Source: an uncultured virus (IMG/VR IMGVR_UViG_2061766007_000276)
Lineage: Duplodnaviria > Heunggongvirae > Uroviricota > Caudoviricetes
DNA length: 31,997 nucleotides
Virus record (IMG/VR): IMGVR_UViG_2061766007_000276
Strand: one strand, 5' to 3'
The notes below the pieces were generated by a model. The model was not told where the DNA came from. It made no database searches and worked only from the letters and a program-made list of their open reading frames with translations. Below, in pieces: positions 9,357-27,307 of the stretch (the stretch's first letter is position 1; the number at the start of each line of letters is the position of its first letter). Made by a program: the position numbers and the translations under genes.

Positions 9357-9385
9357 TCGCGATATTTTCAACTCATAAGACGGAA
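9357..9385 (+). promoter_or_regulatory. TCGCGA-W5-YC element, copy 1 (putative phage promoter)
   Basis: TCGCGATATTTTCAACTC starts just after a stop codon and aligns with copies at 12096, 13456, 14783 and 27280. Confidence 0.5.
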
Positions 9386-9430
9386 GCGCTGGAGTTTTGA
9401 ATCCTCCACGCTTTCGATTTTTTTTTCTCT
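9381..9430 (+). terminator. rho-independent terminator
   Basis: Stem GAAGCG(C)TGGAG / CTCCACGCTTTC followed by a T9 run. Confidence 0.65.
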
Positions 9431-9471
9431 GACCGTAGACTCGTCGACAGATAGGAAAGGAGCGAGCGGAA

Positions 9472-9738
9472 ATGGAAATGGTCTGGTTGAAAGAGGAACG
9501 CGTAAAGGAGGCCATGGGGAAAAGGGGCGTGAAGGTCGCGGATCTGCAGAAGAACGGGATCATGAACCGTTCCACGTTCCAAAGGTCCATGAACCGCGGG
9601 ACCATGAGCAGGCCCAAGGCCGAAGCCCTGGCCGGATATCTCGGGGTGCCGTTCAAGGAGATCTTCGGAGAATCAGATCCGGTCTCCCTAGGAGACGCAA
9701 TCCGGGAGGCCACAGACAGGATAGNNNNNNNNNNATAA
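9472..9738 (+). CDS. Cro/C1-type HTH protein; 3' end in an N gap
   Basis: GAAAGGAG RBS; VKEAMGKRGVKVADL...NRSTFQR...AEALAGYLGVPFKEI. Confidence 0.65.
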   Translation: MEMVWLKEERVKEAMGKRGVKVADLQKNGIMNRSTFQRSMNRGTMSRPKAEALAGYLGVPFKEIFGESDPVSLGDAIREATDRIXXXX

Positions 9739-9758
9739 TTTTCGGAAAGGACGGCGAT

Positions 9759-10046
9759 ATGGAGAACAGCAACGGCGTGTCGGATTACGACGTTTTCGAG
9801 GCCAGGGTCGAGGCCCTCGCCGGGAAATGGGACGGTATCGCACCGGATATTGCGGTGGACGAACTGCAGGGCCTTGCGGACCTGGTGGCCAACGTCGAGT
9901 CCGGGAAGAAGGTCAAGCATCCCAGGAAGAAGATGGTCAACGCGCTCGCGGACGCCATGATAGCCGCCGAGATCCTCAGAATCCATTACGGGGTCTCCAA
10001 GAAGAAGCTCGGAAAGACGCTGTTGAAGCGGTCGTCCAAGATGTAG
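9759..10046 (+). CDS. degenerate MazG-like (all-alpha NTP pyrophosphatase) protein
   Basis: VDELQGL...VNALADAMIAAEIL follows the EExxEL...EExxDV layout, but several acidic residues are lost. Confidence 0.45.
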   Translation: MENSNGVSDYDVFEARVEALAGKWDGIAPDIAVDELQGLADLVANVESGKKVKHPRKKMVNALADAMIAAEILRIHYGVSKKKLGKTLLKRSSKM

Positions 10047-10056
10047 GAGGCACGCC

Positions 10057-10296
10057 ATGCAGAAGGCGATATTCGAGGGAAGCGACCCGGCTGGCATATT
10101 GAAGAGGTCCAAGACTTACAAGCTCAGGGTGGTGTTCCAGAGGGAGCTCGTGCCCCCGATATTCGAGGTCGAGCTCGACGACCTCAAGCCGTACGTGTAC
10201 GTATACAATCTGCACGAGGAACATCCCGACATGTACTGCCGGGTGCAACAATACGAATCGTTCGACGAATTCCTGCTGAACTGGAGCCTGCTATGA
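10057..10296 (+). CDS. hypothetical protein, paralogue family C
   Basis: GGAGG RBS; LKRSKTYKLRV...YESFDEFLLNW. Confidence 0.7.
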   Translation: MQKAIFEGSDPAGILKRSKTYKLRVVFQRELVPPIFEVELDDLKPYVYVYNLHEEHPDMYCRVQQYESFDEFLLNWSLL

Positions 10297-10529
10297 AAAA
10301 GGTACGCAAAACGACGTCAACGGACGGATATTGCAGGTGCTACTACTTGGGACCGGACGATTGGGAGGCGGGCCTTCAACATGGGAAGATCTACAAGGTC
10401 AAGGCGGAGGAGATGAAGTCAGGCCGCATATCCGTGGAGATCGAGCCGGAGAACTATCATTTGAAGATACGGCGCCACAAGTACGCCGACATGGAAGAGT
10501 TCGAGATGAACTGGAAAAGGAGCGGATAG
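10293..10529 (+). CDS. hypothetical protein, paralogue family C
   Basis: ATGA overlap; LQHGKIYKVKA...YADMEEFEMNW. Confidence 0.7.
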   Translation: MKKVRKTTSTDGYCRCYYLGPDDWEAGLQHGKIYKVKAEEMKSGRISVEIEPENYHLKIRRHKYADMEEFEMNWKRSG

Positions 10530-10532
10530 GAC

Positions 10533-11237
10533 ATGGACGATAAGAACCTGAATACTGCGGATATTCCCAAGGAGGGTGCTATCAAGTACTACGTGGTGTG
10601 CGACGTGTGCTCGGCTGAGAAGGACGAGCCGGTGCGCATCGAGGGCGAGTACGGAGAGGACTGCCCCCTGGAGGACCGTTCCCAACGGATATTCGACCTG
10701 GTGTACGACCACATAGAGACCCACGGAGATCCTGACGAGGGCTACGACTACTACACCTACATGCGCGGATACGAGACCCACATAGGCAGGGTGCCGGCGG
10801 AGAAGACTGCCGAGAAGTACGTCGAGGTTCCGGCCGATACGGTGGCCGAGGATATTCCCGGGAAAGACGTATACGGCGAGGAATTCGATCCGGTGGACCA
10901 TCCGGAACACTACGCCAAGGGGACCCTCGAGTGCATCGACTGGATCCGCTACGAGCTAACGAGAGAGGAGTACCGCGGATATCTGAAGGGGTGCATGATG
11001 AAGTACCTCTGGAGGCACGAGGACAAGGGTAAGCCAGTGCAGGATCTGGAGAAGCTCCGCAAGTATGCCGAGTTCCTGATAGACGACTACGAACGCGAGG
11101 AAGCCGACGAGAACCTGGGATTCGAGGAGCCCGGCAGGTTCGTGCCGGAGAACCCTAGAGCCGCTCTGACCGGGGTTACCGACTTGCGGGAGGCGGCCGC
11201 GNNNNNNNNNNNNNNNNNGCCACGAACCGTCCCCTGA
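10533..11237 (+). CDS. DUF3310 (SaV/T7 gp1.7-like putative nucleotide kinase) domain protein with an acidic N-terminal extension; 3' end uncertain
   Basis: DPVDHPEHY...ECID...GYLKGCMMKYLWRHEDKG.PVQDLEKLRKY is the DUF3310 signature. Confidence 0.8.
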   Translation: MDDKNLNTADIPKEGAIKYYVVCDVCSAEKDEPVRIEGEYGEDCPLEDRSQRIFDLVYDHIETHGDPDEGYDYYTYMRGYETHIGRVPAEKTAEKYVEVPADTVAEDIPGKDVYGEEFDPVDHPEHYAKGTLECIDWIRYELTREEYRGYLKGCMMKYLWRHEDKGKPVQDLEKLRKYAEFLIDDYEREEADENLGFEEPGRFVPENPRAALTGVTDLREAAAXXXXXXPRTVP

Positions 11238-11327
11238 CCAACGCGGACCTGTGCGACGCCCTCGGGACCATGGTTACGATAGCGGAAAAGCATTACGCGA
11301 AACTTCCGACGGAAAAGGAGGCCTCCG

Positions 11328-11579
11328 ATGCGCCTGAGCGATGAGGAGAAGGTGGTTCTGAACGAGATCCTCGGCGAGAACGACAGCAAGATCCTCGAAT
11401 CCGTGGAGAATCTCCTGAAAGGATATCCTAACAGCGTCATGGTGAGGAGGGCGTGCCTGGACATCGCCTACAGGATCGGGTTCGCCGCCGCCGTCAGATG
11501 CGCCGAGTTAGACTCGGAGGGTATTGCAGAAGGGGGTGAATGCGAATGCTCGTGCAAGACGGGTTCTTCTTCGGAATAG
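11328..11579 (+). CDS. hypothetical protein
   Basis: AAGGAGG RBS; ORF fits the operon. Confidence 0.6.
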   Translation: MRLSDEEKVVLNEILGENDSKILESVENLLKGYPNSVMVRRACLDIAYRIGFAAAVRCAELDSEGIAEGGECECSCKTGSSSE

Positions 11580-11720
11580 GGTTTATGGGCGCTGTGCTGG
11601 CGGCCGTCATATTCGTCCTGANNNNNNNNNNNNNNNNNNNNCGTCAGCTACCTGACGTCGAAGAAGGACAAGACCAGGAGAAGGGAAGACGACGATGAGC
11701 GCTATGATGGACGGGGTTAG
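11540..11720 (+). CDS. small membrane protein, interrupted by an N gap
   Basis: GGGGG RBS-like run; MRMLVQDGFFFGIGFMGAVLAAVIFVL hydrophobic helix; charged tail after the gap. Confidence 0.4.
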
Positions 11721-12078
11721 GGAGGCCAAGCTGAAGGAGATCCGAAAACGCCTCACGATCGAGGATCTCCTGATCCAGCTGGCAGAGGAGGCTTCCGAGC
11801 TTTCGCAGGCCGCGACGAGGATGCTGCGAGGAATGCGTGGGCACAACCTCCCGAAGGGCACGTCCCTGGATATTTCGGGGAAGCTGGTGGAGGAGGCTAC
11901 GGACGTGTTCGTCTGCCTGGAACTTCTGGGCGTCGAAGCGTGTACGGACGTGGCCGACCACAAGATCTCCCGGTGGGTGGAACGCCTGGAAAGGGAAGAC
12001 GCGGATATTTGGAAACGCTACTTCGAGAAGGGCGGCAAGCCGCTGGATTTCAAAGCGAAGAACCCGAAGCTCGGCTGA
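11695..12078 (+). CDS. MazG-like nucleotide pyrophosphohydrolase
   Basis: QLAEEASELSQAA...LVEEATDVFVCLELL carries the EExxE...ExxD metal-binding pattern. Confidence 0.75.
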   Translation: MSAMMDGVREAKLKEIRKRLTIEDLLIQLAEEASELSQAATRMLRGMRGHNLPKGTSLDISGKLVEEATDVFVCLELLGVEACTDVADHKISRWVERLEREDADIWKRYFEKGGKPLDFKAKNPKLG

Positions 12079-12095
12079 GCGCTAGCGTAGGCCTT

Positions 12096-12122
12096 TCGCG
12101 ATATTTTCCGATCCTCTACGGA
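12096..12122 (+). promoter_or_regulatory. TCGCGA-W5-YC element, copy 2
   Basis: Intergenic TCGCGATATTTTCCGATCC upstream of an RBS. Confidence 0.45.
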
Positions 12123-12145
12123 AAGGATACGACGAAAGGGGACGT

Positions 12146-12460
12146 ATGGTAGAAAAGCTTTTCGGCGTGCTGGTGGTTTTGGCCTTGGCAGCATGCGTGA
12201 TAGGAGTATTGCTTATAATGCTCGATTTCATGCTAGATGTCGGGGCGTTTTGGCTGCTGGCAGCCGTGGGCCTGGGGACCGNNNNNNNNNNNNNNNNNNN
12301 NNNNNNNNNNNNNNNNNNNNNNNNNNNNNNNNNNNNNNNNTATCTCCGGGAGAAGGGAGATTCTATGAAGAAAAGCCTTTGGATATTGGCCGCGTTCAGC
12401 ATACCGATATCTTGCGCGTTCGCGTGCCTTATTGGAGCCATCGCCGGAGCGGTGCTCTGA
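12146..12460 (+). CDS. membrane protein(s); probably two small genes joined across an N gap, with a second ATG at ~12365
   Basis: Strongly hydrophobic helices; a second RBS GAAGGGAG precedes MKKSLWIL. Confidence 0.5.
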   Translation: MVEKLFGVLVVLALAACVIGVLLIMLDFMLDVGAFWLLAAVGLGTXXXXXXXXXXXXXXXXXXXXYLREKGDSMKKSLWILAAFSIPISCAFACLIGAIAGAVL

Positions 12461-12471
12461 ACGGAGTGAAC

Positions 12472-12867
12472 ATGGACGATTGCGCAATGGAATACAAGTT
12501 CGAACGCCTTTTCACGAAGGACTACGAGAAATGGCTGACGGAGAACACCCCCTGGAAATGGTATCGTCCGATAGACACGTCGAAGGATTTCGTGTTCTTC
12601 AACCAGGTATCGAGGAAGCTGACGTGCATCCCGTACGACCTCATATCCAGGAGCATGTTGTACATGCCTACCAACACGCCTGGAACCGGCGAGAGGTACA
12701 TCGCCGTCATTTTGGCCGTCAACGGGAAGTACGACATCAACTACGATGAGGACGATTGCCGGTTCACCGAGGGTATGGAATACGTGTCCGACGACCATCG
12801 GACCAGAATAGACATATACGTCAACAAGTCGGCGAAGAAGCCGAAAGAAGAGAACGAAAACGATTAA
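12472..12867 (+). CDS. hypothetical protein
   Basis: GGAG RBS before ATG 12472; globular composition. Confidence 0.65.
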   Translation: MDDCAMEYKFERLFTKDYEKWLTENTPWKWYRPIDTSKDFVFFNQVSRKLTCIPYDLISRSMLYMPTNTPGTGERYIAVILAVNGKYDINYDEDDCRFTEGMEYVSDDHRTRIDIYVNKSAKKPKEENEND

Positions 12868-12873
12868 ACGGAT

Positions 12874-13101
12874 ATGGAAAAGGAGCGAATGGAAATGGCA
12901 AACGCTATCAAATGCACGAGCTGCGGGAACTTCGAGGAAGGGCTCGGATATTCCGTGAGGATCTACCAGCACATGATGAACGACGAGCCTAACCGCCAAA
13001 GGGAGTACGTCCGTCGGGTCGTTACGCAGGACTGCCTGTGCTTCAAATGCGCGTCCGCCGCCGCGGAGGCCGTCCACGAAGTGCTCATCCCAGAGGAATA
13101 G
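12874..13101 (+). CDS. small Cys-rich (CxxC...CxxC) protein
   Basis: CTSC and CFKC; AAGGAG RBS suggests the start may be ~12889. Confidence 0.6.
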   Translation: MEKERMEMANAIKCTSCGNFEEGLGYSVRIYQHMMNDEPNRQREYVRRVVTQDCLCFKCASAAAEAVHEVLIPEE

Positions 13102-13110
13102 GGGGACCCG

Positions 13111-13449
13111 ATGGCATACGGTAAGAAGTTCGTGCCCGTCGTAGACGAAGACGGCTCCAACGAGGTCGAGGACCTCTGGGACGTCACCTTCTACCTGGAC
13201 AGGGACCTTTGCTTCACCTTCGGGTATTTCACGGACGAGCTGTCCGCGAGGACGTTCTCCTCCAAGATCCTGATGGGGGACCTCGGCAGCATCCAGGACC
13301 AGTTCGTAGGCAACCTGGTGGAGCTTGGAGAGGACGCCAAAGTCCTTATCAGGCCCAACAGCGTATGCGCCGTGGAAATCGGCCACCCTTTCGAATGGGA
13401 GGTCAGGAGGAGCTGGTGGGAACGCGGCGACGATAACGCCGTGGGATGA
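13111..13449 (+). CDS. hypothetical protein
   Basis: GGGGG RBS; ORF fits the operon. Confidence 0.65.
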   Translation: MAYGKKFVPVVDEDGSNEVEDLWDVTFYLDRDLCFTFGYFTDELSARTFSSKILMGDLGSIQDQFVGNLVELGEDAKVLIRPNSVCAVEIGHPFEWEVRRSWWERGDDNAVG

Positions 13450-13455
13450 GGGACC

Positions 13456-13500
13456 TCGCGATTTTTCCAACCTCTCTAATAGGATGATATTCCGAGAGAG
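13456..13500 (+). promoter_or_regulatory. TCGCGA-W5-YC element, copy 3, with an overlapping CTCTC/GAGAG inverted repeat
   Basis: Intergenic TCGCGATTTTTCCAACCTCTCTAATAG upstream of gene 13514. Confidence 0.55.
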
Positions 13501-13513
13501 AAAGGGAAATATT

Positions 13514-13756
13514 ATGAAGTTTTTCGGGAATCTCAAGTCGAATATTGTGGCTAAGAAGGACGACGCCGTCGAGGCGATCGGCGACTGGGCAGTCGACCAT
13601 CCGGTCGCGCTAACGGGAATTTGCTACGTCATCGGGCTCGCAGTGGCTATGCCGCTGTGCGTCTGGTCGTACAAGTACATGGGTAAGCGCATCGGGCGCG
13701 AGACCGCAAAGGAGCTGGCCGCTGCAGGCGTCCGGCTAGGCTACAACCACGACTGA
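13514..13756 (+). CDS. small single-pass membrane protein in a stand-alone cassette
   Basis: GAAAGGG RBS; hydrophobic helix; flanked by the motif upstream and a terminator downstream. Confidence 0.7.
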   Translation: MKFFGNLKSNIVAKKDDAVEAIGDWAVDHPVALTGICYVIGLAVAMPLCVWSYKYMGKRIGRETAKELAAAGVRLGYNHD

Positions 13757-13762
13757 TATTCC

Positions 13763-13796
13763 GAAAGGACTCTTAACGGGGTCCTTTCTCTTTTTC
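13763..13796 (+). terminator. rho-independent terminator
   Basis: Stem GAAAGGACTC / GGGTCCTTTC followed by TCTTTTT. Confidence 0.7.
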
Positions 13797-13946
13797 TCTC
13801 GCGTATCGCGTACGTTCCATTTGTCATTCGATGGGATTCATATGAGCGAGCTTTACGACAACGTGCTGCTGTGGGGCGGCAACTTCAAGGTGGTGAGACC
13901 ATATCCGTCCGTACGGGTGGTCCACATAGGAAAGGAGCAGGAAACG

Positions 13947-14273
13947 ATGGAAGAGAACAAACAAGTCAAGACGGATATTCCGGAGAAGGATCCGATGAAG
14001 TTCGACTTCGGCCATGGGGACGAGACCGTCGACGACTTCGTCGCCAGGCGCAAGGCCGAACGCGAGAAGATCGAGAAATCCTACAAGAAGCTCGACAAGG
14101 CTCTCGGATTCGTATTGATGGCCGCGGTCGGCGCCGAGATCTACCTCGTCGGCAAGTTCGTGGGCCAGAAGGCAGGCTACGCCAAGGGGCTGGTAGTTGG
14201 GCAAATGCTGGGCGAGCGCGCCGTGTACAGCGAGATCGTGAATATTGTCAAGGGGGCAGGTGGTGCGGCATGA
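13947..14273 (+). CDS. membrane-anchored hypothetical protein
   Basis: GAAAGGAG RBS before ATG 13947; hydrophobic helix followed by GxxxGxxxG. Confidence 0.65.
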   Translation: MEENKQVKTDIPEKDPMKFDFGHGDETVDDFVARRKAEREKIEKSYKKLDKALGFVLMAAVGAEIYLVGKFVGQKAGYAKGLVVGQMLGERAVYSEIVNIVKGAGGAA

Positions 14274-14545
14274 GGGCGCTAGTGGGAAAGACCGAGAGCA
14301 TAACGCTCGAGGAGGCCATGGAATTCCGGGACAAGGCCAACACCGAGTTCCTCTACTACATGAAGTCGATCGTCGACGAGGCTACGGACGACGAGGACGA
14401 GAGGGCGGATATCTCCGTGAACATGGCCGAGAAGCTCGGGAACCTGATGTCCATGTGCGAGCTGGTAGGCGTGCTCATGGACGACGACATGTACGTTTCT
14501 AGGATCCCGCACAACGAGGGGGTGCGGATAGAGGAGGTCGGTTAG
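14270..14545 (+). CDS. hypothetical protein
   Basis: ATGA overlap with the previous stop; acidic helical protein. Confidence 0.6.
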   Translation: MRALVGKTESITLEEAMEFRDKANTEFLYYMKSIVDEATDDEDERADISVNMAEKLGNLMSMCELVGVLMDDDMYVSRIPHNEGVRIEEVG

Positions 14546-14546
14546 A

Positions 14547-14819
14547 ATGGACGACGGGACGTTGCTGATGGAGAAGACGGAGGCGCTCTGCGATAGGCAG
14601 GACCGTTTCGTCGCCGCCATGAACGCCGGGAACGTCTTCGAGATGTACGGGGTGTTCCTCGAGGAGGAGCTAGCGCACATGGAGATGTTCTCGGATATCG
14701 TGCAGGATCCGGAGCTGAAGGCGTACGCCGCGATGCTGATAGCCGATTGCAGCATGAGGTGCAAGATGACGCTCGAAGCAGTTCGCGAAAAAATCAACTC
14801 CATGAATGAGGACCAATAA
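14547..14819 (+). CDS. hypothetical protein
   Basis: GGAGG RBS; ORF fits the operon. Confidence 0.6.
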   Translation: MDDGTLLMEKTEALCDRQDRFVAAMNAGNVFEMYGVFLEEELAHMEMFSDIVQDPELKAYAAMLIADCSMRCKMTLEAVREKINSMNEDQ

Positions 14820-14828
14820 GGGTCCTCA
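14783..14828 (+). promoter_or_regulatory. TCGCGA-W5-YC element, copy 4, followed by an 8-bp hairpin
   Basis: TCGCGAAAAAATCAACTCCATGAATGAG, then TGAGGACC-AATAAG-GGTCCTCA; precedes gene 14847. Confidence 0.55.
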
Positions 14829-14846
14829 GGAGAAAAGGAGTTTACT

Positions 14847-15077
14847 ATGGCAGAAGAGAAAATCGAGGCTGTGGAGAACACCGAAGCCAAGAAGGACAAC
14901 CCGGTGGTTGCCTTCGCGAAGGGCATCCCTGGCGGGATCAAGAGGAACGCCAAGGGGATCGCTGCTGGAGCAGTTGCTGCCGCTACCGCGANNNNNNNNN
15001 NNNNNNNNNNNNNNNNNNNNGAAGGCGACTTCGAGGTACCGTTCGAGGAGCCGAGCGAGGAAGCACCGGAAGCCTAG
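14847..15077 (+). CDS. small membrane-anchored acidic protein in a stand-alone cassette
   Basis: AAAGGAG RBS; Ala-rich hydrophobic segment; terminator directly downstream. Confidence 0.65.
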   Translation: MAEEKIEAVENTEAKKDNPVVAFAKGIPGGIKRNAKGIAAGAVAAATAXXXXXXXXXXEGDFEVPFEEPSEEAPEA

Positions 15078-15100
15078 ACTTCGACGTGTTCCCCGGGCCC

Positions 15101-15137
15101 GAGGAGCATCTGAAACAGGTGCTCCTTTTCTTTTTTC
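15101..15137 (+). terminator. rho-independent terminator
   Basis: Stem AGGAGCATCTG-AAA-CAGGTGCTCCT followed by a T-rich run. Confidence 0.75.
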
Positions 15138-15176
15138 CGCCGTATTCTTTTTTCTCTTCGAAAGGAAGGAGCGATA

Positions 15177-16019
15177 ATGGATTGGAAAGGTTTGGCGAAG
15201 ACCGTAACGAAGGCGGCGTCAAGGCACTCGCCCGCGATATTCACCGCTCTCGGCATAGCCGGTTTCGGGACCACGGTCGTGATGACGGCGAAGGCTGCTC
15301 CTAGGGCAGCGGACGTCCACGCGAGGGAATCGTGGGAGAGGTGCGACGCCGCGGACGAGAAGGAAGACGGGATCATATCCGAGGAGGAGCTCAAGGCCAA
15401 GGTCAGGGACTCCTACATCAGGGAGGTCAAGGACCTGGCGCCCCTGTACCTCCCGGTGGCAGGCATGGGGATATTGTCGATCGGGTGCTTCCTGATGGCT
15501 AACAAGATCCACGTGGACAGGGAGGCGGCGGTCATGGCCGCATATTCCCTGAGCGAGAAGACTTTGGCCACTTACCAGGACAAGGTCATAGAGAAGCTCG
15601 GCGAGGAGGTCCATAAGGATATCCTGGACGAGGCCACCAAGGACATTGTCAGGAACGAGGCGCCGGAGGACCTATCGCCGGACGCGATAGTGGTCCCAAA
15701 CGGGGGAGCCACCGTAAGATGCTACGACAACGTGACCGGGCGCTACTTCTTCAGCAGCAAGGAGCGGATATTGGAGGCAGAGGGGGCCGTCAATAAGCGC
15801 CTGCTGAACGAGACGAGGGTTCCGTTACAGGAGTTCTACTACGAGCTCGGCTTGGAGGAGAACTTCGTCCTCGGCGAAGCCATGGGATGGGATATCTCGA
15901 ACCCGTACTTCGGAGGGGACAACGTCCTGAGCATATGGTTCACCCCGATGCTGGACGACGACAAGAACCCGTGCCTCGCGTTGAACTACCACGTCCTCAT
16001 ATTCGAGCGTTCGGCTTGA
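15177..16019 (+). CDS. DUF6353-like phage protein (paralogue 1)
   Basis: SPAIFTALGIAG..TTVVMTAKAAP...AAYSL...YDNVTGRYF...L.EFYYELGL...GW pattern, recalled as DUF6353. Confidence 0.7.
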   Translation: MDWKGLAKTVTKAASRHSPAIFTALGIAGFGTTVVMTAKAAPRAADVHARESWERCDAADEKEDGIISEEELKAKVRDSYIREVKDLAPLYLPVAGMGILSIGCFLMANKIHVDREAAVMAAYSLSEKTLATYQDKVIEKLGEEVHKDILDEATKDIVRNEAPEDLSPDAIVVPNGGATVRCYDNVTGRYFFSSKERILEAEGAVNKRLLNETRVPLQEFYYELGLEENFVLGEAMGWDISNPYFGGDNVLSIWFTPMLDDDKNPCLALNYHVLIFERSA

Positions 16020-16048
16020 ACGACGGGTAAGGACGAGAGGTGCGAGTT

Positions 16049-16258
16049 ATGGGAACGTTGACTGCGTGGCTCGAGAACAACCCGGAATATTCGGTGACCT
16101 TCCAGTCGCAGAGGGACGGCCTGGTGCTGGTGACGATGAGGACTGGCAAGATCGTCTACGGCAGGTCCGAGCATCCGCACTTCCTGGAATTGGGCGACGC
16201 ACTGGATATTCTCGACCACATGAGGGAGACGATAGACGAGTATCTAAAGGAGCGATGA
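16049..16258 (+). CDS. hypothetical protein
   Basis: GAGG RBS; ORF fits the operon. Confidence 0.55.
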   Translation: MGTLTAWLENNPEYSVTFQSQRDGLVLVTMRTGKIVYGRSEHPHFLELGDALDILDHMRETIDEYLKER

Positions 16259-16259
16259 C

Positions 16260-16634: not shown

Positions 16635-16637
16635 AAA

Positions 16638-18975: not shown

Positions 18976-18991
18976 GAAAGGAGAGAAGCAT

Positions 18992-19954: not shown

Positions 19955-20020
19955 GACGAGGGATTGGACGAATACCTGCGAATCTGCAGGATATTCGGCA
20001 TCGGAAAGGAGTGACGGCTT

Positions 20021-20774
20021 ATGGGTATCGAGAAGCTGACCGGATTCGTCAAGAGCGGATATTACTGGCCGGCGGTGGCNNNNNNNNNNNNNNNNNNNNN
20101 NNNNNNNNNNNNNNNNNNNNNNNNNNNNGATATCCTCCAAGGTCAAGAGCCCGTCCAAGGAGACGGTCGAATGGGCTTCGGAGCATATGGACGAGCTGTA
20201 CGGCCTGAGCGGGTTCGATGGCGACGAAGACTTCTCGTTGCCGTTCCCGGAAGGGGTCAACATCGTAGACCAGGACAAGGTCGACAAAGTTGTCAACGAC
20301 GAGATATTCGTGAAGCCCGACATCGCCAAGATGAGGGACTACACGAAGTACGCCAACGTCCCGGGAAAGCACGCGAAGTCCCTCGACCCGGAGGAAGGCG
20401 AGGAAATTTCCGAAGACGGAGGAGAGATGGTGGTCGACGTCCTGGATGACGACAGGTTCGAGATCATATCCGAGCAGGAGTTCGTGCACGAGGTAGGGAA
20501 CGAGAACGGCTACGTGTCCGCAACCGGGACGTACTTCACCCAGGACGGGATATTGGCCGGATGGAACGACGACCTGGTGGAGAAGGACATCCTGAACACC
20601 GTGGGGATGAAGGCGATATCCGCTTTCGACCAGCAGTCGACCAAAGCCGTGTACGTCAGGAACGACCAGCTAAAGGTCCTGTACGAGATCGTGAGATGCG
20701 ACGATCCCATGGAAGACGTCCTACGCGAGAACGAGGAGGCGTCCGTGGACGCCATCCAGGAAGACTCCAAGTAG
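20021..20774 (+). CDS. membrane-anchored acidic phage protein, interrupted by an N gap
   Basis: GAAAGGAG RBS before ATG 20021. After the gap the protein-like frame is that of ORF 20187..20774 (II.EQEF...TYF..DGIL...VYVRND.LK..YEI). Confidence 0.6.
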
Positions 20775-20784
20775 GGAGGACGGC

Positions 20785-21363
20785 ATGGTATCCGAATGGG
20801 ACGGTTCCTGGAAGGAAGAGGATTTCGCCAACGCGTACAGGAACTGGCTGGCCGACTACATGGAAGCCGAAGGCTACTCGATATTGTTCGACGTGCTCCA
20901 CGACACCGAGTTCGAATGGGACCACGCGAGGTTCCCGAGGGACTCGGACAGGGAGGCGGACGGGCGGTACCTCAGGCTCAGGTTCTCCGACGAGTCCGGC
21001 ATGGATATCATGGAGGATTGGCTGGCCTGGCCCTGCAGCTTCCTGGAGTTCCTGATAGCCTTGGCGTGCGCCATAGACGACAAGATAATGTACGATCCGG
21101 ACACGCCGGAAGGACCGTGGACGTGGTTCTGGGAGATGATGGCCAACTGCGGGCTCAAGACGTGTACGGACGAGTGGATGATGGAAGCCGGGATATCCGG
21201 ATGGAAAAAGGTGTCGGAGATCACGAAAACGATCATGGGACGTAGGTACGAGTACAACGGGAACCTCGGACTGTTCCCGTTACGCCGTCCGGAGATGGAT
21301 CAAAGATCCGTGGAAATCTGGTACCAGGCGAACGCATATTTCATAGAGAAGTACTTCGAGTGA
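20785..21363 (+). CDS. conserved phage protein preceding the primase/polymerase
   Basis: GGAGG RBS; D.DR..DG..LR..F...CSFLEFLIALA...WFWEM..N.GL...R.Y...G..GLFP...DQR.VEIWYQ. Confidence 0.75.
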   Translation: MVSEWDGSWKEEDFANAYRNWLADYMEAEGYSILFDVLHDTEFEWDHARFPRDSDREADGRYLRLRFSDESGMDIMEDWLAWPCSFLEFLIALACAIDDKIMYDPDTPEGPWTWFWEMMANCGLKTCTDEWMMEAGISGWKKVSEITKTIMGRRYEYNGNLGLFPLRRPEMDQRSVEIWYQANAYFIEKYFE

Positions 21364-21389
21364 GGGGGCCGAGGCGAGTTGAAACCGAG

Positions 21390-21430
21390 TTATTTTTAAC
21401 AAAAAAGTAACACAAAAAGTAACACAAACG
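21390..21430. repeat. AT-rich tandem repeat AAAAAGTAACAC x2 (candidate replication origin)
   Basis: Perfect 12-mer copies at 21402-21413 and 21414-21425 in the intergenic region upstream of the replicase. Confidence 0.55.
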
Positions 21431-21745
21431 CCGATTTTCGGTACTTTCGACCCCCGATCCCATTTGTCTAAGACAAATGGAAAAGTGCCCNNNNNNNNNN
21501 NNNNNNNNNNNNNNNNNNNNNNNNNNNNNNNNNNNNNNNNNNNNNNNNNNNNNNNNNNNNNNNNNNNNNNNNNNNNNNNNNNNNNNNNNNNNNNNNNNNN
21601 NNNNNNNNNNNNNNNNNNNNNNNNNNNNNNNNNNNNNNNNNNNNNNNNNNNNNNNNNNNNNNNNNNNNNNNNNNNNNNNNNNNNNNNNNNNNNNNNNNNN
21701 NNNNNNNNNNNNNNNNNNNNNNNNNNNGGGGGACGTGGAAATGCC

Positions 21746-24700
21746 ATGCTCGATTTCGTTCGAATAACCACTTCCACGAAAGTGACGAAAAGGAAGGACG
21801 GGGCGTCGGATGTCACCGTCCGGATATCTCCCGAATTCATAGTGAGGTCGTCGGAGGACCTCATGATAAAGGGATCGGCGTTCTACGCGGTCTGGGATCC
21901 GGATATCGGGATGTGGTCCAAGGATCCGGGGACCGTGTGCAGGATAGTGGACGAGGGGATAGACGAGGCCGCGAAAAGGCTTCCCGACGGTATGAAGAAC
22001 GCTGTTCTGGAGAAGATGTACCTCAGGACGTATTCCACGAAGAAGTGGACGGAGTTCCTAGGATATTGCGCTTCCCTCCCGGACAACTACCACGAGCTCG
22101 ACACCAAGCTGACCTTCGAGAACGACGAAGTGTCGAAGGAGGACTACGTCAGCAAGCGTCTCGGATATTCCCTGAAGCCAGGCTCGATAGACGCGTGGGA
22201 GGAGCTTATAGGAACCCTGTACGACCCCATAGAGAAGCAGAAGGTAGAATGGTCCATAGGCTGCATAGTGTCGGGAGACAGCATAAGGGTCCAGAAGTTC
22301 GTCGTACTGTACGGAAGCGCCGGAACAGGAAAATCGACCCTTTTGAACATAATACAGATGCTTTTCGACGGATATTACAACACGTTCGAGGCCAAGGCTC
22401 TGGCCTCGTTCAACAACTCCTTCGCCTTGGAGATGTTCAGGGATAACCCGCTGGTATCCATACAGCACGACGGCGATCTCAGCCATATCGAGGACAACAC
22501 CAAGCTGAACTCCATAGTATCGCACGAGGAGATGGTCGTCAACGAGAAGAGGAAAGCCCAGTACACATCCAGGTTCAACACGTTCATATACGTTGGGACG
22601 AACAAGCCGGTCACCATCACCGATGCCAAGAGCGGGATATTGCGCAGGTTGATAGACGTCCGTCCTAGCGGCAAGATGGTCGACTTCCAGAGGTACCAGA
22701 CGTTGATGGCGCAGGTCAGGTTCGAGTTGGGAGCCATAGCGTACCATTGCCGGAAAGTCTACAGGACATTGGGGATCTCCGCGTACGACAAGTACGTCCC
22801 TACCGAGATGATGGGCGCGACCAACGACTTCTACAATTTCGTCATAGACACCATGGATATCCTGTCTGTTCCCGGAGGCGTCACATTGGCAAACGCCTGG
22901 GAGGAGTACAAGAAATGGTGCGAGATGGCGAAGGTGAAGTACCCAAAGAGCAAGAGGTCGTTCAAGGAGGAGCTCAAGAACTACTATTCCGAGTTCAAAG
23001 AGAGGGGAAGGGACTCGTCCGGAAACCAGGGATATTCCGTGTACTACGGTTTCAAGAAAGACAAGTTCCGGTACTCGACCGAACAGGAGGAGCTTAAAGC
23101 AGCCATAGAGTCCGTGGACATGTTGAAGCTCGACAGCGAGGTATCGCTGTTCGACGTCGACTGCGCCGGATATCCTGCCCAGTACGCGAACTCGGATGGA
23201 ACCCCTTCCATGAGGTGGAGCAGGGTGAAGACCACGTTGTCCGATATTTCCACCACCGAGCTCCATTACGTGAAGCTCCCGGAGAACCATATCGTCATAG
23301 ATTTCGACTTGAAGGACGACGATGGGGACAAGTCGTTGGAAATGAACCTGAAAGCCGCGGCGAAATGGCCCAAGACCTACGCCGAGCTGAGTAAGAGCGG
23401 TAAGGGAGTGCACCTGCACTACCGATATGAGGGGGACACATCCAAGCTTTCGAACATCTATTCCGAGGGGATAGAGGTGAAGGTGTTCAAAGGCAACGGC
23501 GCGTTGAGGAGGAAGCTCACGCGCTGCAACAAGGAGGAGATCGCGATATTGCAATCAGGTCTCCCGTTGAAGAAAGGAGGAAAGAAGGTGATAGATTTCG
23601 AGGGGCTGGCGAACGAGAAGGCGTTGCGCACCATGATAGAGCGCAACCTCAAGAAGGAGATCCATCCAGGCACTAAGCCGAGCGTCGACTTCATATACAA
23701 GATACTCGAGGACGCGTATTCTTCCGGGATGCACTACGACGTCACGGATATGAGGCCTGCTATCATGGCGTTCGCCAACAACAGCACCAACCATTCGTAC
23801 TACTGCATCAAGTTGATGTCGAAAGCGCATTTCCAAAGCGAGGACCCGTCAGACGGAGTCGATTGGGCCGATCCCGACGATATCGTGTTCTACGACGTCG
23901 AGGTTTTCCCGAACCTGTTCGTCGTCGTGTGGAAGAACGAGGATTCGGAGCAGTGCGTCAAGATGATCAACCCTTCCCCGTCCGATATCGAGAAGCTGTG
24001 CCGGTTCAAGCTGGTCGGGTTCAACAACAGGCGGTACGACAACCATATCCTGTACGCCAGGATGGTCGGAATGAACAACCAGGAGCTCTACGGCATAAGC
24101 AAGCGGATAATCGGTGGAGGCAAGGAGTCGAGGAACGGCTACTTCAACGAGGCGTGGAACCTGTCCTACACGGATATCTACGACTATTCCTCGAAGAAGC
24201 AGAGCTTGAAGAAATGGGAGATCGAGCTCGGCATCCACCACCAGGAGCTTGGCCTGCCCTGGGACGAGCCCGTCGACGAGAGCCTTTGGGAAAAAGTCGC
24301 AGAGTACTGCATAAACGACGTCAGAGCCACTGAGGCGGTGTTTAAGGCCACTTACGACGATTTCGTGGCTAGGTGCCTACTTGCGGACTTATCGGGTCTC
24401 AGCGTCAATCACACGACCCGCAGCCATGGTACGAAAATCATATTCGGTAATGACAAGAATCCTCAGGAAAAGTTGGTCTACACGGATCTGTCAGAGATAT
24501 TCCCGGGGTACGAGTTCGACAACGGGAAGAGCTCTTACAGGGGAGAGGATCCTGGAGAAGGAGGATACGTATACGCCGAGCCAGGATATTACGAGAACGT
24601 CGCCCTTCTGGACATCGCCTCCATGCATCCCACATCGTTGATCGAGCTGAACTACCTAGGCCCTTACACGGAGAGGTTCGAGGATATCGTCAAGGCAAGG

Positions 24701-25558
24701 CTGGCGATAAAGCATGGAGATCACGACTCGGCCAGGAAGATGTTGGACGGCAAGCTCGCTAAGTACATCGACGATCCGGATATCTCGGATAAGAAGCTGG
24801 CCTATGCCCTTAAGATCATCATCAACTCGGTTTACGGGTGGACGAGCGCGAGATTCGACTGCGAGTTCAAGCATCCGAGGAACGTCGACAACATAGTGGC
24901 GAAGCGAGGAGCTCTGTTCATGATAGACCTCAAACATGAGGTGCAGCGTAAGGGGTTCACCGTGGCTCACATCAAGACGGACTCCATAAAGATACCAAAC
25001 GCCACCCCGGAGATCATATCCTTCGTGATGGACTACGGCAAGGAGTACGGATACACGTTCGAGCACGAGGACACGTACGACAAATTCTGCCTAGTGAACA
25101 ACTCCGTGTATATTTGCAAGAGCAGGGAGCACAACTGCTGGGAGCCGACAGGTGCCCAATTCGCGGAACCGTATGTGTTCAAATCCTTGTTCAGTCACGA
25201 GGATCTGGAGTTCAGGGATTTCTGCCAGACGAAGACGGTGACCGTCGGCGATATTTACCTCGACATGAACGAGACGTTAGGGGAGGATGACCACAACCTG
25301 AAGTTCGTCGGAAGGGCCGGATTGTTCACCCCGGTCGTCCCAGGTTCAGGAGGAGGGATATTGTACAGGGTCCAGGATGACAAGCTGTACGCCGTAACCG
25401 GAACCAAAGGATATCGGTGGCTCGAGTCCGAGACAGTCGAAATGCTGGGAAAGCAGGACGAAGTGGACGTTTCGTACTACGAGAGACTGTGCGAAGAGGC
25501 AATAGAGGACATAGGCAAGTACGTGGACTACGAGAAGCTCGTGGAAGAAAAGGAGTGA
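21746..25558 (+). CDS. fused SF3 helicase / primase / 3'-5' exonuclease / family-B DNA polymerase (~1270 aa)
   Basis: Walker A GSAGTGKS (~22313); prim-pol motifs IVIDFD and ELSKSGKGVHLHY; ExoI FYDVEV, ExoII GFNNRRYD, ExoIII YCINDV; PolB motifs LDIASMHP, KIIINSVYG, HIKTDS. Start placed at ATG 21746 after the N gap. Confidence 0.88.
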   Translation: MLDFVRITTSTKVTKRKDGASDVTVRISPEFIVRSSEDLMIKGSAFYAVWDPDIGMWSKDPGTVCRIVDEGIDEAAKRLPDGMKNAVLEKMYLRTYSTKKWTEFLGYCASLPDNYHELDTKLTFENDEVSKEDYVSKRLGYSLKPGSIDAWEELIGTLYDPIEKQKVEWSIGCIVSGDSIRVQKFVVLYGSAGTGKSTLLNIIQMLFDGYYNTFEAKALASFNNSFALEMFRDNPLVSIQHDGDLSHIEDNTKLNSIVSHEEMVVNEKRKAQYTSRFNTFIYVGTNKPVTITDAKSGILRRLIDVRPSGKMVDFQRYQTLMAQVRFELGAIAYHCRKVYRTLGISAYDKYVPTEMMGATNDFYNFVIDTMDILSVPGGVTLANAWEEYKKWCEMAKVKYPKSKRSFKEELKNYYSEFKERGRDSSGNQGYSVYYGFKKDKFRYSTEQEELKAAIESVDMLKLDSEVSLFDVDCAGYPAQYANSDGTPSMRWSRVKTTLSDISTTELHYVKLPENHIVIDFDLKDDDGDKSLEMNLKAAAKWPKTYAELSKSGKGVHLHYRYEGDTSKLSNIYSEGIEVKVFKGNGALRRKLTRCNKEEIAILQSGLPLKKGGKKVIDFEGLANEKALRTMIERNLKKEIHPGTKPSVDFIYKILEDAYSSGMHYDVTDMRPAIMAFANNSTNHSYYCIKLMSKAHFQSEDPSDGVDWADPDDIVFYDVEVFPNLFVVVWKNEDSEQCVKMINPSPSDIEKLCRFKLVGFNNRRYDNHILYARMVGMNNQELYGISKRIIGGGKESRNGYFNEAWNLSYTDIYDYSSKKQSLKKWEIELGIHHQELGLPWDEPVDESLWEKVAEYCINDVRATEAVFKATYDDFVARCLLADLSGLSVNHTTRSHGTKIIFGNDKNPQEKLVYTDLSEIFPGYEFDNGKSSYRGEDPGEGGYVYAEPGYYENVALLDIASMHPTSLIELNYLGPYTERFEDIVKARLAIKHGDHDSARKMLDGKLAKYIDDPDISDKKLAYALKIIINSVYGWTSARFDCEFKHPRNVDNIVAKRGALFMIDLKHEVQRKGFTVAHIKTDSIKIPNATPEIISFVMDYGKEYGYTFEHEDTYDKFCLVNNSVYICKSREHNCWEPTGAQFAEPYVFKSLFSHEDLEFRDFCQTKTVTVGDIYLDMNETLGEDDHNLKFVGRAGLFTPVVPGSGGGILYRVQDDKLYAVTGTKGYRWLESETVEMLGKQDEVDVSYYERLCEEAIEDIGKYVDYEKLVEEKE

Positions 25559-25560
25559 AA

Positions 25561-26055
25561 ATGCCTAAGCAGAGAATAGAGGAAAGACCGATCTTCGAGA
25601 ATTGCCGGATCATATTCCGGAACTTTGCCGGAGAGCAGTCGCAGTACAACAGAGCAGGAGACAGGAACTTCTGCGTAGTTATCGACGATGAGGAGACGGC
25701 GTCGAGGCTTATAAAGGACGGATGGAACATAAAGCATCTTCCGCCCTTGGACGAAGGCGGCGAAGAGACCGCATATTTGCCAGTAGCCGTTTCGTTCCAG
25801 AACGTACCCCCGACCATAATAATGCTGTCTTCCAGAGGGCGCACGCATCTCGACGAGTCCACCATAGATATTCTGGACTACGCTGAGATAGAAACGGTAG
25901 ATTTGATCGTGAACCCGTACAATTGGGAAGTCAACGGTAAATCTGGTGTCAAGGCGTACGTGAAATCGATGTACGTCACGATACGCGAGGATGCATTGGC
26001 GAAGAAATACGCAACCTTCGACACCAACGACCCGTCAGACGACGTTCCGTTCTAA
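25561..26055 (+). CDS. single-stranded DNA-binding protein
   Basis: AAGGAG RBS; IIFRNF.G...YN..G.RNF...VKAY; acidic C-terminal DDVPF tail; lies between polymerase and helicase. Confidence 0.75.
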   Translation: MPKQRIEERPIFENCRIIFRNFAGEQSQYNRAGDRNFCVVIDDEETASRLIKDGWNIKHLPPLDEGGEETAYLPVAVSFQNVPPTIIMLSSRGRTHLDESTIDILDYAEIETVDLIVNPYNWEVNGKSGVKAYVKSMYVTIREDALAKKYATFDTNDPSDDVPF

Positions 26056-26058
26056 ACC

Positions 26059-27273
26059 ATGGGTGTAGGCCTTTACAAGCACCAAGTCGAGGCCGTGGAG
26101 AAGTTGAGGTCCGGCTCCGTCCTTTGCGGCGGGGTCGGATCCGGCAAATCCAGAACAGCGTTAGCCTTCTTCGTGAAGAAGGTGTGCTGCGGAAAGATAC
26201 CTCCTCCGAGAAGCACTGAATCCGTAATGGTAAAATATGAGGTGCCTCTCTACATCATAACCACGGCCGGAAAAAGGGACCGACTGGATTGGGAGAAGGA
26301 ATGCGCTCCTTTCTGCATCGCCACAGAAGGTCCTAGTCTAGTCCCATTGAAAGTGGACTCATGGAACAACATAGAGAAGTACGTCGATATCGAGAACGCG
26401 TTTTTCATTTTCGATGAGCAGCGGATAGTAGGCACTGGAAAATGGGCTAAGACTTTCGTGAAGATAGCCAAGAAGAACAGGTGGGTTCTTCTCAGTGCAA
26501 CGCCAGGAGACACATGGTTTGATTACTGGGCGATATTCGTAGCGAACGGATACTACAAAAACGTTACAGATTTCAGAAGGCAACACGTCGTTTACAGGAG
26601 AATGGCCAAATTCCCTCAGATAGAGAGATACGTGGACACTTGGAAGCTGGAAAAGTTAAGACATGATATTCTAGTGAACATGCCGTTCGAGAGAGAAGCG
26701 GTAAGGCATCACGAGTGGGTCAAAGTCGGATACGAATCGGATATCTACAACCTAGTTGCGAAGAAGAGATGGAACGTTTACGAGGAACGCCCTCTTGAGA
26801 ACATATCTGAAACTTGCTACACCATGCGAAAAGTAGTCAATTCCGATCCGAGAAGGTGCGTGGCCGTAATAGATATTCTTTCGAAAAGGCCTAGCGCAAT
26901 AATATTCTATAATTACAATTACGAATTGGCGATGCTTCGTGAGTGCATGGAAGAGAACGGAATAGAGTACTCCGAGTGGAACGGTCACAAGCATCAGGAT
27001 CTTCCGGATGGAAGGAAATGGGCTTACCTTGTCCAGTACACCGCTGGAGCAGAGGGATGGAATTGCATCACGACGGACACGGTCATATTCTTCTCCCAGA
27101 ATTACAGCTATAAGGTTATGGAGCAAGCTTGCGGGAGAATAGATCGTATGAACACACCCTACACGGATTTGTACTATTACCATATTTTCAGCGATGCTGG
27201 AATAGACAAAGCGATAAGAAATTGCATCAAGAAGAAGCGCGACTTCAACGAAAGAGCTTTTATCACCCACTAA
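26059..27273 (+). CDS. superfamily 2 DNA helicase
   Basis: Q motif LYKHQ, Walker A GSGKS, FDEQR, LSATP, EGWN and QACGRIDR. Confidence 0.85.
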   Translation: MGVGLYKHQVEAVEKLRSGSVLCGGVGSGKSRTALAFFVKKVCCGKIPPPRSTESVMVKYEVPLYIITTAGKRDRLDWEKECAPFCIATEGPSLVPLKVDSWNNIEKYVDIENAFFIFDEQRIVGTGKWAKTFVKIAKKNRWVLLSATPGDTWFDYWAIFVANGYYKNVTDFRRQHVVYRRMAKFPQIERYVDTWKLEKLRHDILVNMPFEREAVRHHEWVKVGYESDIYNLVAKKRWNVYEERPLENISETCYTMRKVVNSDPRRCVAVIDILSKRPSAIIFYNYNYELAMLRECMEENGIEYSEWNGHKHQDLPDGRKWAYLVQYTAGAEGWNCITTDTVIFFSQNYSYKVMEQACGRIDRMNTPYTDLYYYHIFSDAGIDKAIRNCIKKKRDFNERAFITH

Positions 27274-27279
27274 TTTTTT

Positions 27280-27307
27280 TCGCGATAAAATCACCCCCTT
27301 TAATGAG
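27280..27307 (+). promoter_or_regulatory. TCGCGA-W5-YC element, copy 5
   Basis: TCGCGATAAAATCACCCCCTTTAATGAG in the intergenic gap upstream of the nuclease/RNAP genes. Confidence 0.55.

Follow-up and report, generated by a model that had tools for sequence, protein, structure and literature searches.

The window analyzed here is a 31,997-nucleotide (nt) stretch of DNA from an uncultured tailed virus (IMG/VR record IMGVR_UViG_2061766007_000276; Caudoviricetes). It is part of a siphophage of the group that includes Lactococcus phage 1706, Faecalibacterium phage FP_oengus and actinophages. A short sequence element occurs five times in the window, at or next to gene boundaries. A preliminary description, made from the sequence of the window, had aligned the five copies as TCGCGA-W5-YC (TCGCGAWWWWWYC) and proposed a promoter read by an RNA polymerase of the phage, or by host RNA polymerase redirected by a phage factor. 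We find that this motif is the upstream half of a contiguous element of about 32 nt. The element is very likely a promoter. That it is the cognate promoter of the phage's own predicted two-barrel RNA polymerase, an 880-amino-acid (aa) protein, seems probable to us. What the analysis shows is a motif that occurs non-randomly, is placed as a promoter would be, is conserved and accompanies the polymerase gene.

The locus

The polymerase gene lies in the right part of the window, which also codes for a primase-polymerase (phrog_4210), a single-strand annealing protein and a helicase. The copies of the element and the features around them are listed below by position. Scores are bits under the weight matrix described in the next section, and candidate starts follow the first of the two start geometries considered later. 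ORF stands for open reading frame.

9357..9390, + strand: weakest copy, upstream half intact; TAAGAC followed by GGAAG; ahead of gene 9472-9738; -1.1 bits
9382..9426, + strand: 12-pair hairpin at 9382-9415, then T9 at 9418-9426 (RNAfold); starts at the candidate +1 of the 9357 copy
12096..12129, + strand: weak copy, upstream half TCGCGATATTTTC as in 9357; CTCTAC followed by GGAAAGG, one base closer; start codon 12146; 6.1 bits, about the null mean
13456..13489, + strand: promoter-like copy; TCTAAT at 13475-13480, candidate start 13481; ahead of the small gene 13514-13756; 15.9 bits
13763..13798, + strand: terminator-like hairpin of 11 pairs with T-rich tail TCTTTTTCTC; ends the one-gene unit begun at 13456
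14783..14816, + strand: promoter-like copy in the 3' end of ORF 14547-14819; ATGAAT at 14802-14807, candidate start G14808; 18.1 bits
14808-14827, + strand: 7-bp hairpin behind the 14783 copy; leader fold z = -4.1
15101..15137, + strand: terminator-like hairpin of 12 pairs with T-rich tail TTCTTTTTTC; ends the one-gene unit from 14783 (gene 14847-15077)
27280..27313, + strand: best promoter-like copy, TCGCGATAAAATCACCCCCTTTAATGAGAGGGAT; TTTAAT at 27299-27304, candidate start G27305; ahead of the endonuclease-exonuclease-polymerase operon; 33.5 bits
27305..27337, + strand: leader hairpin, 8 bp at 27305-27329, then T7 (RNAfold); starts at the candidate +1; terminator- or attenuator-like
27354..27671, + strand: endonuclease gene, the first behind the 27280 copy (phrog_93, E 5e-15)
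27616..28170, + strand: Cas4/RecB-like exonuclease gene (phrog_3953, E 1e-76; Pfam DUF2800)
28170..30812, + strand: predicted 880-aa single-chain two-barrel RNA polymerase (phrog_4291, E 0, residues 2-879)

Two one-gene units span the distance from a copy to a terminator-like hairpin, one from 13456 to 13788 and the other from 14783 to 15127. Rfam and tRNA scans of the window gave zero matches.

Occurrence and anatomy of the element

A pattern scan of the window finds TCGCGAWWWWWYC at exactly five positions (9357, 12096, 13456, 14783 and 27280), all on the + strand, as first described. In 100 dinucleotide-preserving shuffles of the window the pattern matches 0.06 times on average and at most once. 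The bare hexanucleotide TCGCGA is at its chance level (15 in the window versus 15.9 expected), so the enrichment resides in the extended word. On the minus strand the weight matrix finds zero sites above chance. The window has 14 masked runs of N, in which extra copies could be hidden. The longest DNA contig aligned at 11894-14842 shows 36 differences; among those listed, none falls in the three copies there, with about one expected by chance, so this carries no weight. The DNA sequencing runs that contain the window in full are labelled bovine gut metagenome and may be its source.

The + strand carries every plausible gene of the window, and 5/5 copies point in the direction of these genes. 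Four copies closely follow a stop codon: by 5 nt at 9357 (stop 9352), by 18 nt at 12096 (stop 12078), and by 7 nt at both 13456 (stop 13449) and 27280 (stop 27273). The copy at 14783 lies within the final 37 nt of ORF 14547-14819. The reported position at or next to gene boundaries therefore holds for every copy, 5-18 nt after a stop or, at 14783, inside the 3' end of an ORF. The downstream start codons (9472, 12146, 13514, 14847 and 27354) come 25-90 nt past the end of the hexamer, counted from the candidate +1, a placement like that of promoters.

Alignment with relatives extends the motif downstream. Counting from the C of CGCG, the element consists of CGCG (positions 1-4), W-AAA-WW (5-10), ACA (11-13), five variable bases (14-18), an A/T-rich hexamer of the TWTWAT kind (19-24) and a purine at position 25, usually then RAG (GRAG). 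The window hexamers are TAAGAC (9357), CTCTAC (12096, one base closer), TCTAAT (13456), ATGAAT (14783) and TTTAAT (27280). The AAT that the preliminary description had seen in the last three copies is the end of this second conserved block. TCGCGA does not survive as the core of the element. Its first base varies among A, G, T and C in relatives and its sixth is A or T, so the palindrome is incidental; the extended element around it is real. The corresponding block of Lactococcus phage 1706 is CACATG or CGCATG.

We scored the copies with a weight matrix made from 33 sites of other phages, none from the window. The null is 30 Markov simulations scanned on both strands, in which the maxima average 5.1 bits and reach 13.2. 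The copies at 27280, 14783 and 13456 beat the top null score, and three of the five are therefore full members. Those at 12096 and 9357 are weaker candidates that share mainly the upstream half. They have an identical upstream 13-mer and a variant ending in AC followed by GGAAG. The 9357 copy is retained as a candidate because its layout, with a hairpin at the candidate +1 and then a T run, mirrors that of 27280.

The element differs from a standard host promoter in the window. A sigma-70 consensus scan of 8500-28400 gives 9 sites versus 9.2 expected, none of them at the five copies. None of the five has a TTGACA-like -35 box 16-18 nt upstream, and columns upstream of CGCG are low in information. 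The element also has no TGn extension at the proper spacing. Judged as sigma-A -10 boxes (A at position 2 and T at position 6), none of the five window hexamers has both bases. Among the FP_oengus copies tabulated, the commonest hexamer is CTTTAT. With no position-2 A in FP_oengus CTTTAT, no -35 box and a conserved block 5 nt from the hexamer, the element of the window and FP_oengus is not sigma-70-like. This outcome depends on the lineage: relatives with TATAAT or TATAGT pass the -10 test and the window fails it. Promoters of coliphage N4 are DNA hairpins. No such hairpin core is found here, as the conserved blocks are not self-complementary and the sole palindrome, TCGCGA, is unconserved in relatives.

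Conservation among relatives

In 23 loci (the window, FP_oengus and 21 IMG/VR loci) we took the best match in the 1.8 kb ahead of the polymerase gene. In 23/23 it precedes the endonuclease gene and is 901-1123 nt upstream of the polymerase gene; the G+C contents of the loci range from 29% to 55%. Degenerate versions at the equivalent position are seen in Gordonia phage Avazak, Streptomyces phage Bilo, Rhodococcus phage ReqiPepy6, Microbacterium phage Camille and Bifidobacterium phage BitterVaud1. Pattern scans of whole records gave the following counts, with 0 in the controls of each.

FP_oengus: 8 forward, 0 reverse
Arthrobacter phage Circum: 7 forward, 0 reverse
Gordonia phage Avazak: 4 forward, 0 reverse
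Rhodococcus phage ReqiPepy6: 7 forward, 0 reverse
Bifidobacterium phage BitterVaud1: 1 forward, 0 reverse

The pattern scan missed phage 1706 and Bilo, whose copies came from a search for repeated words. Phage 1706 has 11 forward and 0 reverse copies of C(A/G)CATGTTTTACA-N5-CTATAGT followed by AGAAAGAAGG, and Bilo has 4 forward copies. In FP_oengus there are at least 13 copies of (A/G)CGCGAAAAAWNCA-N5-CTTTATGGAG, most of them after a terminator hairpin and before a ribosome-binding site (RBS); the copies of Circum likewise come after terminator hairpins and ahead of ribosome-binding sites. The structural modules of FP_oengus and Circum have zero copies, and the elements precede non-structural genes. 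Phages of Arthrobacter, Gordonia, Rhodococcus, Lactococcus (1706) and Streptomyces (Bilo) carry a perfect TATAAT, TATAGT or TTATAAT as hexamer.

The preliminary description had named absence of the motif from relatives that encode the polymerase as the finding that would count against it. The motif is present in 7/7 isolates from seven host genera, each taken over the whole record. For an eighth, Camille, only the operon copy was examined, and it is present in degenerate form. Motif and polymerase co-occur in these 7/7 isolates and in the 23/23 loci, the relatives compared being all polymerase-encoding, and 77/79 loci found by pattern belong to the group.

The loci found by pattern come from a scan of IMG/VR (2.9 million viral contigs) with the DNA pattern CGCGWAAAWWWCANNNNNTWTWATGRRR alone. 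It gives at least 136 stretches, with roughly one expected by chance on a rough estimate. Of 79 fetched loci, 77 belong to this phage group: 66 have a group signature gene within 5 kb (the polymerase in 22), 3 are on contigs shared with those, 6 have the polymerase elsewhere in the record and 2 have the group's primase-polymerase. The other two lie on fragments rated 15% and 31% complete. Relative to signature genes, the IMG/VR copies are co-directional 105 times and opposite 0 times. A run of at least five T lies within 45 nt upstream in 48 of 95 distinct instances, and an RBS with a start codon lies 37-105 nt from the first C in 72 of them. We found no description of this promoter in the literature searched, in which the literal 13-14-mers have 0 occurrences; the 2008 phage 1706 and 2011 ReqiPepy6 papers were outside this search.

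The relatives show other repeated sequences. The octamer TGATATTT occurs 33 times forward and 0 times in reverse in FP_oengus (NC_047916.1 1-50000), mostly within genes, and 0 times forward in the window. We rejected it as a second FP_oengus promoter class since the word is mostly intragenic; its skew is possibly Chi-like or related to the orientation of packaging or replication. Also in FP_oengus, at 1388-1626 and 3332-3431 near the integrase-proximal region, GCACGC(G/A)GGGGAC(C/A) occurs twice, with TATCAT or TATATT about 15 nt later; it may be a different promoter or an operator. Long non-coding regions with iteron-like repeats (relative loci L001 26895-27765, L036 34097-34506 and L037 996-1443) lie upstream of the operon copy or, in phage 1706, of the polymerase gene. 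Their words include GGCCAAAAA or TTGGCCA in FP_oengus and Circum and three copies of CTATCACGAAAAAAC in 1706, two of which continue TTCGGGA. These regions may be a replication origin or arrays of protein-binding sites. A conserved terminal sequence (G-rich, TCTCGCAAA..., C-rich, TGCATCGCCGCCCT) lies near the polymerase-gene end of relatives (the ends of loci L036-L042; FP_oengus 31661-31720) and adjoins the 3' cos overhang annotated in ReqiPepy6. It has no clear counterpart in the window, where only a C-rich stretch, at 30925-30960, is present. The window also carries two DUF6353 (phrog_2152) genes, at 15177-16019 and 18992-19954, and this family recurs in relatives, often just downstream of the element.

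The 880-aa polymerase

At each end the polymerase carries helix-turn-helix (HTH) modules, around residues 46-127 and 844-879. Pfam matches are HTH_23, HTH_3 and Sigma70_r4_2 at 847-878, the last barely above the cut-off, and HTH_Tnp_1 at 76-127. The catalytic motif DFDGD is at residues 490-494, and D490, F491, D492, G493 and D494 are invariant in 14 homologues. An AlphaFold model (pLDDT 75.8, pTM 0.58) was compared with known structures by Foldseek. The matches are QDE-1 (E 5e-9 to 4e-8), P74-26 gp62 / P23-45 gp64 (E 3e-6), plant RDR2 (E 1e-5), P23-45 gp96 (E 1e-3) and then beta-prime subunits. TM-scores are low (0.30-0.42), so the likeness is confined to the core. Judged by this model, the protein is a two-barrel RNA polymerase of the QDE-1/phage single-chain clade. 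A phmmer search against PDB sequences gave zero matches.

By tblastn, 250 phage records of the isolate collection contain the polymerase, with identities of 37-49%. The records cover phages of Arthrobacter, Gordonia, Streptomyces, Lactococcus, Curtobacterium, Rhodococcus, Microbacterium, Faecalibacterium and Bifidobacterium as well as uncultured gut siphoviruses. Most are labelled 'helix-turn-helix DNA-binding protein' in their records. Koert et al. (bioRxiv 10.1101/842583) have described the phage group; for them the HTH-flanked protein is its signature gene and a putative polymerase that carries a DxDGD loop. The searched text of that preprint does not mention promoters. In the literature searched we found no biochemical study of this polymerase family.

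The GenBank record of phage 1706 labels the homologue orf75 'structural protein', and the ReqiPepy6 record repeats the label. If this record annotation is right, the polymerase could enter the cell with the DNA. In relatives a small conserved gene follows the polymerase. The window has no ORF of at least 50 aa in 30812-31056 and does not have this gene; it keeps the element all the same, and the small protein is therefore not required.

Residues 1-30 of the polymerase (28170-28260) contain HYG-x-PR-x-SGRYPWGSG-x-NPYQH, near-invariant in homologues yet predicted to be disordered (pLDDT <50). This peptide could be a packaging or processing tag. Two regular expressions for it match only the polymerase in the FP_oengus locus, head genes included. 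A loosely similar HYGVKGMKWG opens a 163-aa ORF at 18481 of relative locus L026. Some homologues are interrupted: the match at 10001-12959 of L035 has a length that is not a multiple of three and contains stops in one frame, and in records G005-G007 the match is split in two within an open frame of 965-1012 aa, which suggests an insert near residue 650. Behind the polymerase gene, 30813-31997 of the window consists of 244 nt of non-coding DNA and then ORF 31056-31889, which has a third-position G+C of 0.15 and is mostly masked. It may be a module boundary.

Start site and leader hairpins

Two start geometries can be considered. If the hexamer melts directly before the start, as in phiKZ late promoters, the +1 may be the purine at position 25; in the window this gives 9382, about 12120, 13481, 14808 and 27305. 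If the hexamer instead serves as a -10 box, the +1 may lie about 7 nt farther downstream.

In the 9357, 14783 and 27280 copies a hairpin starts exactly at position 25, and it is followed by T9 at 9357 and by T7 at 27280. The combination of a stable stem-loop and a direct T run that marks terminators and attenuators is present at 9382-9426 and 27305-27337; its role as a terminator is putative. Among relatives, the operon copy has a hairpin with a T-rich tail at the same place in 11 of 18 lineages, versus 28 of 360 shuffled leaders. The 5' arm of this hairpin is the conserved GAAGAGAG-type start region.

A transcript that starts at position 25 contains the whole hairpin, and one that starts about 7 nt farther on escapes it. 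In the first geometry, the leader hairpin may be a promoter-proximal attenuator or a 5' stabiliser. In the second, it may block read-through from upstream and let the promoter's own transcripts pass. In phage 1706, an extended Shine-Dalgarno-like AGAAAGAAGGT directly follows the hexamer in 6/11 copies. This position speaks mildly for an early start, though lineages with a more distant RBS keep the same purine run.

Interpretation

From the placement and conservation of the element we infer that it starts transcription, where it does so and which enzyme reads it. The polymerase would recognise the upstream block with the HTH modules at its two ends and would need no sigma factor. Melting would take place at the A/T hexamer, and the first transcribed base would be the purine behind the hexamer or one just after it, 25-26 nt downstream of the T in TCGCGA. 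Short units of non-structural genes would be driven by the element, as would the endonuclease-exonuclease-polymerase operon. Because the element is homologous across two phyla and confined to the group, one would expect it to be read by some conserved product of the group. Among these the polymerase, encoded by the group's signature gene, is the sole HTH protein identified.

The promoter proposed in the preliminary description has good support in position, strand, RBS spacing and conservation; it had covered only the upstream half, and two of its copies are weak. Its link to the polymerase gene at 28170 is favoured by co-occurrence across host phyla and by the conserved copy before the operon. 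The identity of the reader is our deduction here, and host sigma-A could take that part where the hexamer is TATAAT or TATAGT.

Several points weigh against the polymerase as reader. Transcript 5' ends for this phage or its relatives were not found in the literature searched, and no RNA run matched the window. Two of the five window copies are at or below chance under the cross-phage matrix. The operon lies behind its own element, so the first polymerase must come from the virion or from host transcription, and the sole hint of delivery in the virion is the 'structural protein' annotation. The hairpins that start at the candidate +1 of 9357 and 27280 fit a host-type geometry at least as well. 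YonO, the one relative of this enzyme class with in vivo data in the text consulted, transcribes late genes (Forrest et al., 2017; PMC5467207), and the element here is absent from structural modules. The perfect TATAAT, TATAGT or TTATAAT in the actinophages, 1706 and Bilo is an ideal sigma-A -10 box, and use by the host is plausible in these phages. Actinobacterial promoters often require little beyond a -10 box.

The last point leads to an alternative that the preliminary description had also allowed, in which host RNA polymerase reads the element. The hexamer would be a sigma-A -10 box with the start about 7 nt on, and the upstream block, at about -30 to -18, would be a site for a phage activator or appropriator. 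The 880-aa protein could itself supply this factor in its HTH modules, and its polymerase activity would then have another purpose, for instance late genes, as in YonO, or priming. We consider this explanation unlikely, yet it is the main rival. The perfect hexamers of the Arthrobacter, Gordonia, Rhodococcus, Lactococcus and Streptomyces phages speak for it, and it agrees with the transcription of late rather than early genes by YonO (PMC5467207). It also makes sensible design of the hairpins, as 9357 and 27280 transcripts that lack the 5' hairpin arm would pass and upstream read-through would halt. However, the hexamers of the three full window copies and the CTTTAT of FP_oengus lack the position-2 A that sigma-A needs (Sokolova et al., 2020; PMC7598289), and neither a -35 box nor a TGn extension is present at the right spacing. 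The upstream block would fall in the spacer region, which is not the usual position of an activator. The pattern is moreover confined to this group among 2.9 million viral contigs; any appropriator would therefore be group-specific, and the polymerase is again the only conserved HTH protein identified.

Two further explanations dispense with a promoter. The element could be a protein-binding site, either a repressor or Cro-like operator or a site for replication or packaging. The palindromic TCGCGA core in the window would fit this, as would the HTH genes nearby (9020-9352, excisionase/Cox-like; 9472-9738, weak Cro/C1-type matches) and the iteron-like repeats near the operon copy in relatives. 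Yet the palindrome is unconserved in relatives, the single orientation (105 to 0 co-directional) is unusual for a dimer operator, and the fixed A/T hexamer and purine run stand shortly before ribosome-binding sites and, in relatives, after terminators. We regard this as very unlikely. Similarly improbable is an element that works as RNA within longer transcripts, as a processing site or as part of terminator or stabiliser hairpins. Hairpins do touch several copies, with an arm inside the element at 13456 and 12096 and a hairpin right after it at 9357, 14783 and 27280, and the operon copy has its conserved hairpin and T tail. The CGCG...ACA block, however, is outside any conserved pairing, and the hairpin arms vary between copies while the linear motif is fixed. 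There is also no Rfam match, and the rigid spacing of block and hexamer is that of protein-DNA contact.

We return to the polymerase as the probable reader. A fuller picture built on it is tentative, and we hold it to be possible but doubtful. In this picture the system is self-contained: a polymerase packed in the virion finds duplex promoters of about 30 bp with its own HTH modules and without a host factor, and transcribes early and middle genes and its own operon, gated by the terminator-like leader. The T-A-T-G/R start box, common with phiKZ late promoters and possibly with YonO, would be an old sigma-independent way of starting.

Significance

Single-chain two-barrel polymerases (YonO, crAss-like gp66, P23-45 gp64/gp96 and QDE-1) are models of the ancestral cellular polymerase, and how two-barrel polymerases find promoters without sigma is largely open. 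The HTH-flanked family is widespread, yet has so far been predicted only computationally (Koert et al., bioRxiv 10.1101/842583). Because a 32-nt element accompanies the gene in phages of two phyla, promoter recognition by this family becomes directly testable with one protein and one 40-bp fragment. Cultured members exist, among them Arthrobacter, Gordonia and Streptomyces phages, Lactococcus phage 1706 and FP_oengus. If the polymerase does read the element, the annotation 'helix-turn-helix DNA-binding protein' would be corrected in hundreds of phage genomes. The polymerase-promoter pair, found in phages of Firmicutes and Actinobacteria, could then also be a portable orthogonal expression system for Gram-positive bacteria.

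Comparison with known systems

Promoters of phage-encoded polymerases are a known kind of element; this one, for this enzyme family, is not described in the literature searched. It shares with sigma-70 and sigma-A promoters an A/T-rich hexamer, exactly TATAAT in some relatives, and a position before genes and after terminators. Unlike them it has no -35 box at 16-18 nt, its conserved upstream block is just 5 nt away from the hexamer, and the CTTTAT of FP_oengus has no position-2 A.

Virion RNA polymerases read early promoters in coliphage N4 and in phi14:2, a crAss-like phage whose enzyme is gp66 (as cited in Chaban et al., 2024; PMC10770324). The strategy here may be similar, with a particle-carried polymerase reading early genes, as the 'structural protein' label in phage 1706 hints. 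Unlike in N4, the element has no inverted repeat as its conserved part, and packaging is putative.

YonO of the Bacillus prophage SPbeta transcribes late genes, and its promoter was given as unknown (Forrest et al., 2017; PMC5467207). Both YonO and the window polymerase are single-chain two-barrel phage enzymes with a DxDGD loop (DNDGD at 535 in YonO, DFDGD at 490 in the window). A blastp comparison of the two finds no significant similarity (best E 1.5), and unlike the window polymerase YonO has no Pfam match and hence none to HTH. The yonN-yonK gap of SPbeta (NC_001884.1) contains two copies of TCATTTATGA(A/G)GGT on the transcribed strand, at about 60440 and 60597 of the record and 157 nt apart. 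One of them sits between the primers used to map the YonO start, and the word resembles the downstream half of the element. A possible YonO start word in SPbeta is TCATTTATG followed by AGGG. The published start (coordinate 2225998, B. subtilis 168) could not be placed on SPbeta, two exact-match scans being empty, and the resemblance is therefore a lead only.

Late promoters of the phiKZ non-virion polymerase read 5'-T(-3)ATG(+1)-3' (Sokolova et al., 2020; PMC7598289). They are likewise read by a sigma-independent two-barrel enzyme, with TATG over the start and G at +1; the gut-phage form of the element ends in TTTATG followed by RAG, and the 27280 copy in TTTAATG followed by AG. In contrast, the phiKZ enzyme is multi-subunit, its promoter has no conserved upstream block, and the actinophage form of the element ends in TATAAT and R. 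The resemblance spans four bases and may be chance. The AR9-type promoter (AACA, 6 nt, T, A/G at +1; PMC7598289) was tried and rejected: ACA is present, but the +1 would fall on the conserved T of the hexamer.

The closest characterised case is phage P23-45. Its virion enzyme gp96 reads an AT-rich motif and its non-virion enzyme gp64 a GC-rich one; start sites were mapped by ONT-cappable-seq and ChIP-seq, and the presence of each motif follows its enzyme among relatives (Chaban et al., 2024; PMC10770324). The enzymes have no detectable sequence similarity to the window polymerase, the motifs differ, and the element here is known from sequence only. As far as the consulted text of that paper goes, the P23-45 enzymes, unlike the window polymerase, are without HTH modules, and gp96 is fused to the tape measure protein. 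Both systems have a polymerase of the same structural clade of phage enzymes by Foldseek and a short conserved motif upstream of early genes, and in both the case rests partly on a motif that travels with its enzyme among relatives.

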